Assembly: GCA_035552775.1 (NCBI GenBank) | Contig: DASZKW010000043.1 | Span: 1-64,000, forward strand | DNA length: 64,000 nt | Direction: 5' to 3' | Source: Acidimicrobiales bacterium | Lineage (GTDB): Bacteria; Actinomycetota; Acidimicrobiia; Acidimicrobiales; Palsa-688 | Part shown: one piece after another, positions 17,168 through 39,919 of the stretch | Layout of the letters: the number at the start of each line of letters is the position of its first letter | Position numbering within the stretch: the stretch's first letter is position 1 | Notes under the pieces: generated by a model | What the model saw: the letters and a program-made list of their open reading frames with translations, nothing else | What the model was told of the DNA's origin: nothing | The model's database searches: none | Translations under genes and position numbers: made by a program

Positions 17168-17251
<84 letters not shown>

Positions 17252-34116: not shown

Positions 34117-35328
34117 TCAAGGCGGATCCTCGGCACCATCGGCGGTGGTTGCGGGCTTCGGCCGGCGGGTGACCCGTCTCAGGGCGCGTGCCAAAGTAGC
34201 AGGATAGGCAGCGGCGCGTGAGGCGTCGGCGGCGACGCTAGGTGTCGCGGCGGCGGGTGGTTCGGGGTGGGGACCACCATGCTTGCCGTCGAGCGACTGC
34301 GAAGCCACCTCGGAGCCAGCGGGCGCGGCCCCGGACCCGTCCGCCGGCAGAGGTGCGCCGTCGGGAGCATCGCCGTTGCCGGCGGGCGTGGTGACCCACG
34401 CCAGTCCGTCGGTGCGGAGGCGTTCCAATATCCTCAAGCGGAGTTCCCGGGCGACGCGTTGGTGCTGGCCGGGCCCGGTGCGGACGGACACCCGCATGGT
34501 GACACCGCCGGCGTCGACGGAGGCCACACCGGCGAAGTTGGGCTGACCGATGATGCACGACGCCCACTGCGGATCGTCGGCCATTGCCCTGGCCTCCTCC
34601 TCGGCCACCCGTCCGGTGCGCTGAAGGTCGGTTCCAAGGGGGACGACCACCTCCACGAGCGCGACGCTGTCGCCCTCGGAGTTGTTTCCCACGGTGCGGA
34701 TGTCGCCGTTCGGCACGTACCAGACCACGCCGTCGATGGACCGGATACGCGTCACGCGGAGCGTCACGCCTTCGACGGTGCCCGACGTCGACCCCACCAC
34801 GATGTTGTCGCCCACCTCGTACTGGTCCTCGGCCAGGATCAGGAGTCCCGAGAGGAAATCCTTGACGAGCGTCTGGGCACCGAAGCCGACCGCCGCGCCG
34901 ATGACGGTGGCGCCGGCGACGAAGGGCGTCAGGTTGATCCCGACCTCGCTGAAGATCGTGAGGAAGGCGATCACCCAGATCACCGCCCGGAAAACCGCCG
35001 ACACCACCCCGGCGATGGTCTCCGCCCGCTCCGTGCCCCGGGCGGTGGCCGCCCTCAGCGGCGAGACGAAGTGCACGGCGGACACCAGCCGCCGGGAGAA
35101 GCGCCTTTCGAGGCGGGTGAGGACGAAGGCGACCACCAGGACCACGGCCACCTTGAGCGGCCCGATTGCCCAGACCTGAACGGTGTGAGCGGTGCCGGCG
35201 TTGACGCCGAGGTCTTGGTGAAGGAGCTGGTAGATCACCCCACGGTCGCCGGACACGGCGCCGGTGTCGGCGGCGGCACGGATCCCGGTGGCCACGTTGC
35301 TCAGAATGACCGCGTCAACCCCCGACAT
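34117..35328 (-). CDS. mechanosensitive ion channel family protein (MscS-like)
   Basis: TM helices followed by an MscS beta-domain. Start uncertain (35328 or 35355). Confidence 0.7.
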   Translation of the reverse strand: MSGVDAVILSNVATGIRAAADTGAVSGDRGVIYQLLHQDLGVNAGTAHTVQVWAIGPLKVAVVLVVAFVLTRLERRFSRRLVSAVHFVSPLRAATARGTERAETIAGVVSAVFRAVIWVIAFLTIFSEVGINLTPFVAGATVIGAAVGFGAQTLVKDFLSGLLILAEDQYEVGDNIVVGSTSGTVEGVTLRVTRIRSIDGVVWYVPNGDIRTVGNNSEGDSVALVEVVVPLGTDLQRTGRVAEEEARAMADDPQWASCIIGQPNFAGVASVDAGGVTMRVSVRTGPGQHQRVARELRLRILERLRTDGLAWVTTPAGNGDAPDGAPLPADGSGAAPAGSEVASQSLDGKHGGPHPEPPAAATPSVAADASRAAAYPATLARALRRVTRRPKPATTADGAEDPP

Positions 35329-36037
35329 TGACGCCGACCAGGCGACCGATGGCAAAAGCGAACCCGGCCGCCAGCATGCTCACCACCAGCTGACGTAGCG
35401 CAGATCGCCACATGGAGCGCCCCGTCGCCCGGGCGAGCAGGGTCCCGATGACGATGGCGCTGCCGGCAGCGAGTGCCACCGACAGTGCCTCGGCGAGCGT
35501 GCTGGTGGTGAAGAACCACGGCAAGAGGGGGATCACCGCCCCCAGGGCGAAGCTGGCGAACGACGACACCGCGGCCAGGTAGGGCGACCCGAGCGAGCTC
35601 GGGTCGACGCCCAGTTCCTCCCGGGCGTGCGTCTCGAGGGCCATCTCTGGCGTGCGCATCATCTCCGAGGCCATCTCTCCCGCGATGTCGGGGGCGACAC
35701 CCCGGGACTCGTAGATGTCGGCCAGCTCGCGTTGCTCGGCGACGGGTGAACGCTTCAGCTCCCGCCGCTCCATGTCCAACTCATGCTGGAGCAGCTCGGA
35801 TTGGGCGTGCATGGAGACATACTCGCCTGCGGCCATCGAGAAAGCGCCGGCGAGGAGCCCGGCGAAGCCAGCCAGGCGCACGTAGGGACCCGCGCTCTGG
35901 GCTCCGGCGACACCGATGATGAGCGAGACGTTTGTCACCAGACCGTCGCTGACGCCGAACACGGCGGCGCGAGCCGCGCCGCCCTGCACGTTGCGGTGGT
36001 GGCTCTCGGGTTGGTCCGTGGTGCTGCGAGTGGACAT
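35315..36037 (-). CDS. VIT1/CCC1-family Fe/Mn transporter
   Basis: MSTRSTTDQPESHHRNVQGGAARAAVFGVSDGLVTNVSLIIGVAGA..., the VIT family signature region. Confidence 0.75.
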   Translation of the reverse strand: MSTRSTTDQPESHHRNVQGGAARAAVFGVSDGLVTNVSLIIGVAGAQSAGPYVRLAGFAGLLAGAFSMAAGEYVSMHAQSELLQHELDMERRELKRSPVAEQRELADIYESRGVAPDIAGEMASEMMRTPEMALETHAREELGVDPSSLGSPYLAAVSSFASFALGAVIPLLPWFFTTSTLAEALSVALAAGSAIVIGTLLARATGRSMWRSALRQLVVSMLAAGFAFAIGRLVGVNVGG

Positions 36038-36326
36038 CGCTGGGACGGCACCCTTCGGGTCCGGGGATGATGGCCGGCGTGGACCACCGGTCTTCGTGAC
36101 CCACCAGGCTACGCGCCCGGCGGTCAGGCGGTGGATGGCCCGGACAGCTACGACGACTTGTGCAGGTCGTGGCCGACGATACCGGCACGGAGACGACCGC
36201 GGGCCGGTTACCCGACTCCCCGTCGCTGCTCTAAGATGACCGGCGAGCCAGCGGGCCGCAGGATCGCGCGCGCCGACGCCACCCGGGCGTGTGGCGCCGA
36301 GGCACCCGCCAGGGACCGAGGAGGCC

Positions 36327-36971
36327 ATGGGTGAAGCGCACATATCAACCGAACACCAGGCGGCGAGCCAAGCGACACGGTTTCCGGCACCGGATGTCCA
36401 CGCGTGCCGGTCAGGCGATCATCAAGTCCAGGCGGCTCAAGGGCCGCAAGCGCCTCTCGGCCTGATCTGGCGTGTCCGCAGGCGGGGTACCTTCGGTGAA
36501 CTCCACCGGGCCCGGACGCGGCGCGGGGCCCCGGGAGGGACCCGGCAGGGCGTGGCGGCCGGCACCAGAGCGCAGCGTCACCGTCGTGGGCCTATCACGG
36601 TATCTTGGGTGGGCGACGACTGGTCGGTACCGCCCCGCGTCGGTTTTGCTGTGGGCCGCAACGTTGGCTCCGCGGTGCTCCGAAATCGCCTCAAGCGCCA
36701 ACTGAGGGCGATCTTGGGGTCCGAAGCCGCCCGCCTTTCGGCCGGCGCCTACCTGGTTCGGGTGGCACCAGACGCCATTCACCTATCCTTCCATGATCTA
36801 CAGATCACTTTGGTGCAAACACTCGATACCATGGGCCTTCTGAAAGAGGCTCCCGCCAGTGCTGCATCGACGGCGAGTACCGCCTCTGTGTCGAGTACCG
36901 CCTCTGTGTCGAGTACCGCCTCGGTGTCGAGCAGTGACGTAGGGCACAGCGAAGCGAGAGCCGGTGGTTGA
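36327..36971 (+). CDS. rnpA: ribonuclease P protein component RnpA (long form; 5' part overlaps rpmH out of frame; C-terminal Ser/Thr repeat tail)
   Basis: RnpA core ([26 protein letters not shown]). The only canonical in-frame start is the ATG at 36327, 4 nt before the rpmH GTG. No ATG/GTG/TTG lies between the rpmH stop and the core. Confidence 0.55.
36331..36465 (+). CDS. rpmH: 50S ribosomal protein L34
   Basis: GTG-initiated [52 protein letters not shown] Shine-Dalgarno upstream. Confidence 0.9.
36875..36928. repeat. 18-bp tandem repeat x3 (gagtaccgcctctgtgtc) in the rnpA 3' tail
   Basis: Seen directly. Encodes STASVS repeats. Confidence 0.8.
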
Positions 36972-37305
36972 CGAGCCCTTGAATGGCGCTTCGGTCCTAT
37001 CGGCCCCCGCTGTACGCGTACTGGATCGGCCGGCGCCAGGCGGTGCCATCCGGGGGCGACGCCCCGCCGCCGATGAGGTCTCGTCGGCCCGGGGATGGTC
37101 GCGGCTGCTCGTAGGTCTCATCCAGATCTACCAACTGGCTCGGAGTGGTCGAGTATCGCCGTGCCGCTTCACTCCGACGTGCTCCCAGTACGCCGTAGAA
37201 GCCCTTTCCCGCCATGGCGTCACGCGGGGCCTGCGTTTGACCGCCGGCCGCCTCGTGCGCTGCCGCCCCGGGGGTCCCTTCGGAGCGGACCCCGTCCCGG
37301 AATGA
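36964..37305 (+). CDS. yidD: membrane protein insertion efficiency factor YidD
   Basis: LIQIYQLARSGRVSPCRFTPTCSQYAVEAL...RLVRCRPGGPFGADPVP. Confidence 0.7.
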   Translation: MVDEPLNGASVLSAPAVRVLDRPAPGGAIRGRRPAADEVSSARGWSRLLVGLIQIYQLARSGRVSPCRFTPTCSQYAVEALSRHGVTRGLRLTAGRLVRCRPGGPFGADPVPE

Positions 37306-37312
37306 GGAACTG

Positions 37313-38854
37313 ATGTACTCCTTCCTTAACCCGATCGCCAAGCCGATCGCCGCCGTTTTGGCCGCGTTCTACAGCCTGATCCCGAACTTCGGCGTCGACA
37401 TCTTGGTGCTGGCGCTGATCTGGATGGTGATCATCTCGCCGCTGACGCTCAAGTCGACGCGCTCGATGCTCGCCATGCAGGCCCTCCAGCCGGAGATCAA
37501 GCGCCTACAGGAAAAGCACCGCAACGACAGGCAGGCCTTCGCCCAGGCCCAGATGGACCTGTTCCGCGAGCGGGGAGTGAGCCCGTGGGGATCGTGCCTT
37601 CCTACCATCCTGCCCCTGCCCGTGTTCTTCGCCCTCTTCCAGGTGATCGACGGTCTCAGCCGGATGGTGAAGAACAGCGCAGGTCACCTGGTGTCAAGCC
37701 CGCGCTACCTCGACACTCACTCGGCGATATACCACGCCATCACCACGGCCAAGGGGCACATCAACGCCTTCGGCCTCGACCTTTCCAAGAACCCTCTGTC
37801 GCCGCACTCGTCGTTCGCCGGCGCCCTGCCGTACTACCTGCTTCTGCTGATCATGATCGGCACGCAGTACTACCAGACGTCGATGATGATGAACCGCAAC
37901 CCGGCGGCTGCGCAGAACCCGCAGATGAAGATGATGAAGTACCTGCCGATCGTCTTCGGCGTCATCCTCATCCGGTTCCCCGCCGGCGTCATCCTCTACT
38001 ACGCCATGTCGAACGTGTGCCGTATCGCCCAGCAGTGGGCCATGTACCGATACGACCCCAAGGTGAAGAGCCTGGTGGTGCAAGAGGTCAATGAGATAGA
38101 GGCCAAGACCCGCGAGATCGACAAGGCGGACAAGGCCAACAAGGACCCGTCCGGCAGGTCCCTTCCCTCCAAGGCAGCGCCGGCAAAGCCGCCGGCGGCC
38201 GGGCGTCCCCGGCTGCGTGACCTGCTCTCGCCGCCTGCGGCGCCCGACCAGGCCAGACCTTCCAACGCGACGGCGGGGCGCGACAGGGGCTCGAGGCCCA
38301 AGGGCGCCCCGCCGGCCGGTAGCAACAGGTCCGGCGGTCAGGGCACCATGGCCCCTGGTGCCAAGTCGGCCAAGGGCAATCCGGGAGCCACTCGAAAGGC
38401 GCCCGGAGACTCGAGCAACCGGACCGCCGGCAATGGCAACGGGTCAAACCGGGTCAAGCCGAATGGGAAGGGCTCGGACATATCCAAGAAAAGCTCAGGT
38501 GGCGCACCGGCCGGCGCCAGAGGCAACCCGGGGGCCGGGAGCGGCTCCGGAAGCGCCCGTGGCGCCGCCAAGGCAGGCCCCGGCAAGCCGGGCGCGCCCG
38601 GCACCGGCACGGGGTCTTCTGGCACGGGGTCTTCTGGCACGGGGTCTTCGGGCACCGTGTCTCCGAGCCCTGCGGCTCCTGGCGCGGCGTCGCCAGCCAC
38701 GACCCCCCCGAACACCACCTCCAACGGGTCCGGCTCCAACGGCTCGGGTGGAGGGCAACGAGCATCCACAGGCGCACCTCGTACCGGCGCCGGGGCCAAG
38801 CGCAACATTCCGCCCCCTCGCCGCGGCCGCTCGAAGAAACGTAGAGGCCGCTGA
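37313..38854 (+). CDS. yidC: membrane protein insertase YidC with about 250-aa Gly/Ser/Pro-rich basic C-terminal tail
   Basis: Five-TM 60-kDa-IMP core. The tail ends RRGRSKKRRGR. Contains 15-bp tandem repeats. Confidence 0.85.
   Translation: MYSFLNPIAKPIAAVLAAFYSLIPNFGVDILVLALIWMVIISPLTLKSTRSMLAMQALQPEIKRLQEKHRNDRQAFAQAQMDLFRERGVSPWGSCLPTILPLPVFFALFQVIDGLSRMVKNSAGHLVSSPRYLDTHSAIYHAITTAKGHINAFGLDLSKNPLSPHSSFAGALPYYLLLLIMIGTQYYQTSMMMNRNPAAAQNPQMKMMKYLPIVFGVILIRFPAGVILYYAMSNVCRIAQQWAMYRYDPKVKSLVVQEVNEIEAKTREIDKADKANKDPSGRSLPSKAAPAKPPAAGRPRLRDLLSPPAAPDQARPSNATAGRDRGSRPKGAPPAGSNRSGGQGTMAPGAKSAKGNPGATRKAPGDSSNRTAGNGNGSNRVKPNGKGSDISKKSSGGAPAGARGNPGAGSGSGSARGAAKAGPGKPGAPGTGTGSSGTGSSGTGSSGTVSPSPAAPGAASPATTPPNTTSNGSGSNGSGGGQRASTGAPRTGAGAKRNIPPPRRGRSKKRRGR
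38606..38655. repeat. 15-bp tandem repeat x3 (ggcacggggtcttct) in the yidC tail
   Basis: Seen directly. Encodes GTGSS repeats. Confidence 0.8.
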
Positions 38855-38857
38855 GCG

Positions 38858-39919
38858 ATGGAATGGGTCGAGACCACGGGTCGAACCATCGAAGAAGCCA
38901 AAGAAGCAGCTCTTGACGAACTGGGCGTCGATCAGCACGACGCCGAGTTCGAGGTGGTCACGGAAGCCCGGTTGGGTCTTTTCGGTCGCCTTCGTTCGGA
39001 AGCCCGGGTGCGGGCGCGCGTGCGCCCGACCGCCCCCCGCGCCAAAGATGACCGCCGTGACCGGCGGCGCCGCCGTAAGTCTGAACCCGAGAGTGATACC
39101 GTGGTCTCCGACGCTGGTGGCGCCGACGCGAGGACCGGGCTCGGTACCGGCGAAAAGGCACCCGCGGGCCCGAGCCGGCGGCCCAGGACCAGCGCTCCAC
39201 CGCGGCCCACAGGGGATGGTACGACGGGGCCCTCGGTTACGCCTTCGGCGGACGCCCTACCCTCGGCGGGGGACGCTGACAGACCCAAGTCCCCCGGGGT
39301 CAACGCCCGCTCGACGGATACCCAATCGGGCAATGGGCGGCGCGCCGGCAACGGCGATGGAGCGCGATCCCCGAGAAATGAACGCCCGGCGCGTCCTGGG
39401 CGGACCGCAGATTCATCCAAGCAATCGAGACCCGAGGAGGCAGGACCGGTGGAGGTGGCGCTTGAGGAGCAGGGCCAGGTGGCGCAGGACTTCCTGCGAG
39501 GGCTCATGGACGAGTTGGGTCTGGGCGCCGCGATCCGGGTCGCCCGACCGGACGAGGACACCCTGGAGCTGGGCTTGGAGGGTGACGACCTGGGCGTCCT
39601 CATTGGACAGAAGGGGGCCACGCTGTTCGCCCTCCAGGACCTGACCCGCACCGTGGTCCAACGGCGCACGGGCGCCTCCAACGGCCGTCTGCTGGTCGAC
39701 GTAGGCGGTTATCGCCAAAAGCGCCACCAGGCGTTGGCCCGCTTCGCCGAGCAGGTCGCGGAGCAGGTTCGGTCCTCCGGTTCGCGCAGGGCGATGGAGC
39801 CGATGAATGCCTCCGACCGCAAGGTCGTCCACGACACCATCAACCGCATCGATGGCGTCCAGACCACATCCGAGGGCGAGGATCCCCGGCGCTATGTGGT
39901 CGTTCTGCCCCTCGACTAA
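38858..39919 (+). CDS. Jag/KhpB RNA-binding protein (Jag-N, KH, R3H)
   Basis: N-terminal MEWVETTGRTIEEAKEAALDELG. C-terminal KH/R3H region (VHDTINRIDGVQTTSEGEDPRRYVVV). Confidence 0.8.
   Translation: MEWVETTGRTIEEAKEAALDELGVDQHDAEFEVVTEARLGLFGRLRSEARVRARVRPTAPRAKDDRRDRRRRRKSEPESDTVVSDAGGADARTGLGTGEKAPAGPSRRPRTSAPPRPTGDGTTGPSVTPSADALPSAGDADRPKSPGVNARSTDTQSGNGRRAGNGDGARSPRNERPARPGRTADSSKQSRPEEAGPVEVALEEQGQVAQDFLRGLMDELGLGAAIRVARPDEDTLELGLEGDDLGVLIGQKGATLFALQDLTRTVVQRRTGASNGRLLVDVGGYRQKRHQALARFAEQVAEQVRSSGSRRAMEPMNASDRKVVHDTINRIDGVQTTSEGEDPRRYVVVLPLD

Follow-up and report, generated by a model that had tools for sequence, protein, structure and literature searches.

In the 64,000-nt stretch of Acidimicrobiales DNA analysed here (NCBI GenBank assembly GCA_035552775.1, contig DASZKW010000043.1, positions 1 to 64,000 of the forward strand; “the window” in the following), rpmH, which encodes ribosomal protein L34, lies wholly within a long open reading frame (ORF) for the RNase P protein RnpA, which runs in the -1 frame of rpmH. 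According to the best-supported explanation, which draws on several independent comparative lines, rnpA would be translated from the ATG at 36327, 4 nt upstream of the rpmH start codon, with rpmH nested out of frame in its 5' part; the probability of this reading is put at roughly 70%. A long RnpA starting at ATG 36327, as proposed by the initial annotation of the window, is supported by the complementarity of upstream and junction start codons among relatives, by the avoidance of stop codons in the overlapping frame, by alternative upstream starts at position -19, and by in-frame linkers downstream of the rpmH stop.

The rnpA frame contains no stop codon from ATG 36327 into the RnpA domain and reads the rpmH stop as Leu-Ile (CTG 36462, ATC 36465). 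A single Shine-Dalgarno (SD) sequence, GAGGAGG, precedes both start codons: 2 nt separate its GGAGG core from ATG 36327 and 6 nt from GTG 36331, and its 5' GAGG register lies 5 nt ahead of ATG 36327. In the window, the rnpA frame holds no ATG, GTG or TTG from the end of rpmH up to the conserved helix at the RnpA N-terminus; the junction, where other loci carry a conventional start, reads CTG ATC TGG, and the first canonical codon follows only 29 codons on (36552). The embedded gene matches the L34 families over their full length (PF00468 positions 1-44/44, E=1.1e-20; TIGR01030, E=1.5e-17), and its product is identical to NCBI HWG73460.1. The coordinates first given for the embedding of rpmH in the 5' end of rnpA are right (the ORF at 36327-36971 contains 36331-36465), while several details had to be amended. 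The predicted RnpA has 214 aa and not 215, which is the number of codons including the stop, and the shared SD sequence, which does stand ahead of both starts, reads GAGGAGG (36318-36324) instead of GGAGGAGG. ATG 36327 had been called the only canonical start; none indeed occurs between the rpmH stop and helix α1, but an in-frame GTG lies upstream at 36291. Similarly, the claim that no start precedes the RnpA core is true if the core includes helix α1, but not if it is equated with the Pfam match (from 36567), because GTG 36552, residue 76 of the long protein, lies fifteen bases 5' of it. As both homolog conservation and structural alignment place α1 within the core, the claim holds.

Relatives were collected in several ways. 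A protein homolog search of a 5.8-billion-protein collection yielded 21 homologs with 35-51% identity, each of which opens with M[GSDR]E at the equivalent ATG and has the N-terminal extension. A genome scan with one genome per species yielded 346 relatives, the best 80 of which are all labelled Acidimicrobiia or Actinomycetota, except one metagenome-assembled genome (MAG) labelled Acidobacteriota. The relatives include Acidimicrobiaceae, Iamiaceae, Microthrixaceae, Ilumatobacteraceae, Rhabdothermincola and Acidiferrimicrobium sp. IK. Because one pattern of the genome scan was the extension itself, a second retrieval was made from metagenomes with L34 alone (75 loci). Start codons were tallied over 126 loci, i.e., those in both sets in which rnpA is contiguous with the rpmH end in the -1 frame; locus L074 is absent from this tally.

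Three rnpA start architectures emerge from the tally. An ATG at -4 relative to the rpmH start is present in 65 of the 126 loci including the window (56/81 genome loci, 9/75 L34-only loci); the ATG-n-GTG motif thus recurs in relatives more often than by chance, in the comparison of rnpA/rpmH loci that had been suggested as a check. The consensus of the 56 genome loci is G-A-G-G-A-G-G-C-n-ATG-n-GTG, in which the ATG stands between variable flanks (position -5: A9/C29/G18; position -1: A35/C4/G17). The nested arrangement, as predicted from these loci, is common across the class Acidimicrobiia. Eleven further loci have a canonical rnpA start in the same frame at -19. In six of them (L058, L064, L086, L100, L108, L114), a GTG or ATG at -19 has its own AGGAGG or GGGAGG 4-5 nt upstream, some 30 nt ahead of rpmH; in three (L054, L063, L066), a TTG at -19 was produced by tandem duplication of the ribosome-binding site, with three copies in L063. 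All nine have a CTGA junction, and the remaining two (L115, L148) carry a GTG at -19 yet retain a TTG junction start. Since own-SD rnpA starts lie at -19, the rpmH SD sequence sits inside rnpA codons in these loci (Glu-Glu, MVEEA...). Finally, 50 of the 126 loci have no upstream start; their junction codon, which overlaps the rpmH stop or follows it, is in most cases TTG, GTG or ATG. In a rough neighbor-joining tree, the clade with TTGA junctions is basal and the type with ATG at -4 occupies a large derived clade with scattered losses.

The use of the upstream start is indicated by its relation to the junction codon. Of the loci with an upstream start, 9 have a canonical junction codon and 67 a non-canonical one; among those without, the corresponding numbers are 38 and 12 (Fisher p=1.8e-13, without correction for phylogeny, with many separate lineages involved). 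Among loci with ATG at -4, the junction codon varies between CTG, CTA, TTG, GTA and GTG and the next codon between ATC, ATT, ACC, AGC, AGT and GGA; in L052, the junction is CTA GGA and offers no near-cognate start. Such drift is what would be expected of an internal hydrophobic residue, Leu or Val. In two loci with ATG at -4, moreover, extra in-frame codons stand between the rpmH stop and the WRI motif of RnpA (8 in L022, 6 in L052); neither linker contains a canonical start, and neither locus has a usable junction start.

A second line of evidence comes from the codons of rpmH. The overlapping frame is open in 76/76 nested candidates and closed in 6/24 conventional high-GC loci (p=1.1e-4), and permutation of synonymous codons within the gene gives an open-frame probability of 0.67. 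T-ending codons that would create a stop in the rnpA frame (before AA, AG or GA) occur at none of 358 sites in the 56 genome loci with ATG at -4, as compared with T at 11.8% of harmless sites; 14-18 are expected even after correction for a twofold context bias in neighbouring genes of the same loci. Parsimony on the tree counts 33 third-position substitutions at four always-dangerous sites, none of which is stop-creating, while T is involved in 95/292 changes at safe sites.

Comparison of the proteins places the boundary between extension and RnpA at the rpmH stop. The long protein scores 48 bits against PF00825 (E=1.4e-12) and 43.5 bits against TIGR00188 (E=3.1e-11), above the curated cut-offs of 22.3 and 38.35 bits, respectively. 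The RNR motif is present, with R119, N120 and R124 invariant in the alignment with homologs. LIWRVRxRxTFxxL, at and beyond the junction, is conserved across homologs, with L46 and F56 invariant and I47, W48, R49 and L59 nearly so. An AlphaFold2 model built from 22 sequences has a helix at 53-67 and a predicted local distance difference test score (pLDDT) of 87-97 in core residues 83-170, whereas residues 1-45 have a pLDDT of 50-59 and zero secondary structure; Foldseek matches the model to the solved RnpA structures 1a6f, 4jg4 and 6ov1 (TM-score 0.79-0.88). As residues 6-9 of solved RnpA proteins align at profile positions 48-49 (W48/R49) in a PDB profile alignment, a normal RnpA N-terminus would fall no more than a few residues away from the rpmH stop. 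The RnpA fold thus modelled is one that begins at the rpmH stop junction. The extension, in contrast, is weakly conserved among homologs, and its conserved residues are the ones fixed by L34 codons. Four-fold-site entropy in rpmH, 1.32 bits in nested and 1.38 bits in junction-start loci, is not reduced and gave no sign of amino-acid-level selection on the extension in this comparison. By the model, the extension is probably disordered, a weakly constrained passenger peptide.

Between α1 and β1, the window RnpA carries a 20-aa insertion that is predicted to be disordered and is missing from all 21 homologs. Its tail (36837-36968), 44 aa long, rich in Ser, Thr and Ala and predicted to be disordered, has no counterpart in homologs either; the tandem repeat that the initial annotation had noticed in this tail was confirmed as 18 nt x 3.2 copies (36874-36931). 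The coordinates of these features are collected in Table 1.

Table 1. Features of the rpmH/rnpA locus in the window (positions of the forward strand)
Feature	Position	Strand	Remarks
rpmH (ribosomal protein L34, 44 aa)	36331..36465	+	GTG start, TGA stop at 36463-36465
Long rnpA ORF, 214 aa	36327..36971	+	ATG 36327, TGA 36969-36971
Shine-Dalgarno GAGGAGG (cGAGGAGGcc)	36318..36324	+	Would serve both start codons
Proposed rnpA start ATG	36327..36329	+	4 nt 5' of rpmH start (ATGgGTG)
RnpA N-terminal extension, 45 codons	36327..36461	+	-1 frame of rpmH
Junction codons CTG-ATC over rpmH stop (cTGAtc)	36462..36467	+	Candidate non-canonical re-initiation site
Upstream in-frame GTG, 226-aa ORF	36291..36293	+	No stop between GTG and ATG 36327; no obvious SD
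Predicted RnpA fold, residues 46-170	36462..36836	+	Helix α1 at 53-67, β-sheet, RNR motif
20-aa lineage-specific insertion, α1-β1	36516..36575	+	Gly/Arg/Ala-rich, low pLDDT; holds GTG 36552
18-nt tandem repeat x 3.2 copies, (STASVS)n in RnpA tail	36874..36931	+	Tandem Repeats Finder score 109, 97% matches

The following mechanism would account for these observations. One GAGGAGG ribosome-binding site would serve both ATG 36327 and GTG 36331. Ribosomes choosing the well-spaced GTG would produce L34, the abundant product, while a minority choosing the closely spaced ATG would translate the rpmH region in the -1 frame, decode the L34 stop as Leu-Ile (CUG AUC) and go on to make the RnpA fold. This would yield a 214-aa RnpA, the first 45 residues of which are passenger peptide, and rpmH would lie inside the first 46 codons of rnpA. 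That L34 is mostly made, and the long RnpA by a minority of ribosomes, is inferred from the spacing of GGAGG, 6 nt from the GTG but 2 nt (5 nt in the GAGG register) from the ATG, and partitioning between the two starts would then set the L34:RnpA ratio. In E. coli, L34 exceeds RnpA roughly 130-fold (PMC9945441), a proportion that start partitioning would fit. Re-initiation at CUG or AUC could contribute to a small extent alongside ATG 36327, and both routes could coexist. As to its origin, the arrangement probably started from the conventional 4-nt-overlap TTGA arrangement, still kept in basal Acidimicrobiia, which would have gained an upstream in-frame start, after which the junction start would have decayed to CTG, GTA or CTA.

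On a wider view, which stands at even odds, nesting would be the majority state of a whole actinobacterial class, with an independent origin, and Acidimicrobiia would switch repeatedly among three rnpA starts: a dual start with shared SD at -4, an own-SD start at -19, and overlap with the rpmH stop, including re-initiation on CUG or AUY. The L34:RnpA ratio would be set by start-site competition on one mRNA.

Several points weigh against translation from ATG 36327. By the rules established for E. coli, a spacing of 2 nt between GGAGG and the start codon is suboptimal, and some ten lineages have lost the ATG at -4. The genome scan relied in part on a pattern derived from the extension, and the statistics are corrected for shared ancestry in part only. 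The alternative frame of high-GC rpmH genes is, moreover, commonly open anyway (about 67-75% by chance), so that an open frame alone is no evidence; the weight is carried only by the excess over chance openness and by the test on T-ending codons. High-GC loci with a TTGA junction, too, are rarely closed (1/17 in the L34-only sample).

Further counter-evidence comes from nine loci of the tally that lack a canonical start both upstream and at the junction (L021, L045, L046, L077, L080, L101, L110, L141, L157), a pattern shared by L074. In three of them (L110, L141, L157), the overlapping frame is closed; barring contig errors, these seem to need a CUG or a stop-overlapping AUY start, and non-canonical re-initiation is therefore a real option in the class. 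This favours the main rival account of the window, by which termination at UGA 36463-36465 and re-initiation on CUG 36462 or AUC 36465 would be the main route to an RnpA of ~168-169 aa, with CUGA likened to AUGA and UGAUC to UGAUG, and the ATG at -4 would be incidental or a minor contributor. The position of CTG 36462 is where relatives have their TTG, GTG or ATG starts, and NCBI models relatives with ATG at -4 from the junction (MCU4186127.1, 126 aa, CTG; HET7487935.1, 111 aa, CTG; WP_410051074.1, 125 aa). Since RnpA is required at roughly 1/130 of the L34 level (PMC9945441), a weak start could suffice. However, loci with ATG at -4 have no junction codon pair in common (CTG-ATC, CTG-ACC, GTA-ATC, CTG-AGC, CTG-AGT, CTA-GGA), and re-initiation leaves unexplained why the ATG is kept between variable neighbours, why own-SD starts exist at -19, why upstream starts are complementary to canonical junction starts, and why stops are totally lacking in the overlapping frame. 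Besides, initiation at an SD-adjacent AUG would unavoidably give the long protein. Re-initiation as the main route in the window is thus considered unlikely. The suggestion that CTG 36462, which overlaps the TGA, might act as a start is accordingly weakened by the diversity of junction codons in loci with ATG at -4, but retains some ground in the three closed loci, which seem to need such a start. The conclusion of the initial annotation is supported, but its reasoning does not suffice alone: since certain relatives lack both an upstream start and a canonical one at the junction, the lack of a canonical start cannot by itself force the use of the ATG. The loci without canonical starts have CTG, GTA or CTA at the junction, followed by ATC or ATT; ACG (L021) and ATC (L074) stand exactly at -4, and L101 has a GTG at -18, one base out of frame.

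Two other canonical codons in the rnpA frame come into question. Initiation at GTG 36291 would give a 226-aa protein that still contains rpmH; the codon is in frame with no intervening stop, and some gene callers extend homologs upstream (P0002, P0007). It is nevertheless very improbable as the rnpA start, given that no SD-like sequence lies ahead of it and that upstream in-frame starts of relatives are scattered and non-homologous, in contrast to the recurring -4 and -19 positions. GTG 36552 is the first canonical codon past rpmH and would give a 139-aa protein without helix α1; the truncated NCBI model HEX3539240.1 is comparable, and NCBI models L030 in a comparable way. Against this start, the region 36462-36551 is conserved as protein and forms helix α1, aligning to solved RnpA structures, while GTG 36552 itself sits inside an insertion unique to the lineage, with the nearest GGAGG 13 nt upstream. 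It was rejected as a start that removes a conserved helix and lies in lineage-specific sequence, and its use is barely conceivable. An artefact, i.e., a sequencing or assembly error hiding a conventional start, or a decaying rnpA pseudogene, might be suspected from the apparent lack of the RnpA protein in the source record (11 forms tested) and from the fact that the Joint Genome Institute (JGI) called no gene here in locus L163. However, L163, from an independent JGI metagenome assembly with the same neighbourhood, is 100% identical over 36240-37000 (761 nt), which takes in the ATG and the junction as well as the insertion and the repeat; a sequencing error, named at the outset as what might undo the proposed start, is rejected on this ground. 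The same architecture is found in >60 other assemblies, and the rnpA ORF is intact, with an RNR motif and a high-confidence RnpA fold, which leaves an artefact a negligible probability.

Some loci show further variation of the start region. L082 (2327-2500) encodes an L34 that is 98% identical to that of the window in a similar upstream neighbourhood, and has a conventional layout: ATG is the start of rpmH, the rpmH stop is separated by a 16-nt spacer from rnpA, which opens with ATG ATC TGG (MIW), and the overlapping frame is closed by CGT AAG. The spacer looks as if a short sequence had been duplicated locally (GCGTGA...GCATGA). In 61/61 Acidimicrobiia loci with ATG at -4, rpmH starts on GTG, never on ATG or TTG, compared with 12 ATG, 33 GTG and 5 TTG where no upstream rnpA start exists; this uniformity may be due to an adjustment of the competition between start codons, or to common descent alone. 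Four peat/soil metagenome contigs (L103, L105, L122, L136; GC content 0.62-0.67) form a separate lineage with L34 ending in RLSV. They carry GGAAGGAAGTGG-ATG-g-ATG, the same AUGGAUG motif as Thermus, with the overlapping frame open and rnpA in that frame. Judged by its sequence, this lineage may be another independent nested case; its true rnpA start is ambiguous, because a GTG also overlaps the rpmH stop.

Annotation pipelines disagree systematically on rpmH and rnpA of these loci. The window record lists L34 as HWG73460.1 and YidC as HWG73462.1; the protein collection contains none of eleven candidate RnpA forms, and rnpA apparently received no protein model. Gene models of the JGI/Prodigal type give the long nested rnpA and omit rpmH (L001 5001-5474), and in L163 (2725-4001) no gene is called between VIT1 and yidC. 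NCBI models, by contrast, give rpmH plus an rnpA that starts from CTG/ATC or a model truncated by 25 codons (HEX3539240.1). The models of the NCBI Prokaryotic Genome Annotation Pipeline for Acidimicrobiia rnpA (MCU4186127.1, WP_410051074.1, HET7487935.1) cover the same loci and the same RnpA core, but differ from the nested reading in that they place the start either on CTG/ATC where rpmH ends or further downstream, with loss of α1, and imply no nesting. If L34 is used as a single-copy marker, completeness estimates of Acidimicrobiia MAGs, as well as RnpA models, could be distorted.

Downstream of rnpA follow yidD, yidC and jag/khpB, giving the gene order rpmH-rnpA-yidD-yidC-jag. At the earliest, yidD could start at GTG 36964, with an overlap of 8 nt with the rnpA stop (GTGGTTGA, 36964-36971); the true yidD start is uncertain, since the Pfam match to YidD sets in only with residue 47 of the ORF from GTG 36964. 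YidC (37313-38854) has a low-complexity C-terminal tail of ~260 aa that contains GTGSS repeats and much Gly, Ser, Pro and Ala; the near-identical JGI copy is of another length (518 against 513 aa). In Jag/KhpB (38858-39919), a long Arg/Pro/Asp-rich linker separates the Jag_N and KH domains. Upstream, rpmH is preceded on the minus strand (34117-36037) by divergent MscS-like and VIT1-like genes, identified by synteny with L163, and not by dnaA, whereas L001 (1-4608) has the classical dnaA-dnaN-recF-gyrB block directly 5' of the rpmH/rnpA locus. As MscS-like and VIT1-like genes take the place of dnaA, the origin-region gene cluster would have been rearranged in the window lineage. RNA structure prediction for the start region (36280-36380) gave nothing notable (minimum free energy z-score 0.39), a scan of 35900-37400 for sigma-70 promoters and intrinsic terminators gave zero matches, and a tRNA at 17168-17251 is the sole Rfam match in the whole window.

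As the initial annotation had remarked, the arrangement resembles that of Thermus. There, rpmH is nested in rnpA with an AUGGAUG behind one GGAGG (Feltens et al. 2003, PNAS 100:5724, as described in PMC9841429), and this is cited as the sole example described in bacteria of one ambiguous start site shared by two essential genes (PMC9841429; bioRxiv 10.1101/520783). A retapamulin study counts the Thermus case as one of two known out-of-frame internal starts. The sequence features that define the Thermus-type arrangement, i.e., nesting, an offset of 4 nt between the starts, and a single SD, are all found in the window: as in T. thermophilus and T. filiformis, rpmH is embedded completely and out of frame in the 5' portion of rnpA, the starts are 4 nt apart behind one GGAGG-type SD with the upstream start assigned to rnpA, and the N-terminal extension of RnpA is poorly constrained. 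Feltens and colleagues reportedly found the extension of the Thermus protein to be dispensable in vitro. The two cases differ in phylum (Actinomycetota, class Acidimicrobiia, here and Deinococcota for Thermus) and in motif, which is AUGgGUG here, with rpmH always starting on GUG in Acidimicrobiia loci with ATG at -4, and AUGGAUG in Thermus. Moreover, the predicted RnpA fold of the window starts immediately at the rpmH stop, unlike in Thermus, and nesting has been proven at the protein level in Thermus, while in Acidimicrobiia it is predicted from sequence.

The conventional coupled rpmH-rnpA operon shares with the window the gene order rpmH-rnpA-yidD-yidC-jag and an RnpA fold that runs from the rpmH stop. 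In basal Acidimicrobiia, this layout reads TTGATCTGG, with a TTG overlapping the TGA; in the window, by contrast, the junction CTG is not a canonical start and an ATG-initiated ORF spans all of rpmH. The AUGUG and GUGUG sites of E. coli (pqiA, tamA, narQ; PMC9841429) are similar in that close out-of-frame starts compete on one initiation region. However, their codons overlap (2-nt offset) and the alternative ORFs are short, whereas the starts are 4 nt apart here and both frames encode essential conserved proteins.

A full-text literature search of limited coverage found no report of nested rpmH/rnpA in Acidimicrobiia or other Actinobacteria. If the nested reading is true, the arrangement would be recurrent rather than a one-off, with a second, much larger and apparently independent clade. 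Its -4, -19 and junction variants would be natural tests of how ribosomes are partitioned between adjacent starts and could be used to probe the linkage of ribosome and RNase P synthesis, and the class would offer a natural experiment in the rise and decay of dual-coding starts. Acidiferrimicrobium sp. IK, as a named strain, is a possible experimental system. Unlike Thermus, Acidimicrobiia have sister lineages with alternative solutions, i.e., the own-SD start at -19 and the TTGA junction, which point to an origin independent of Thermus. Because basal Acidimicrobiia carry the TTGA junction start, convergence would be the more plausible explanation and common descent unlikely. The nesting in Acidimicrobiia would therefore represent a new, probably convergent and class-wide case of the Thermus-type arrangement.

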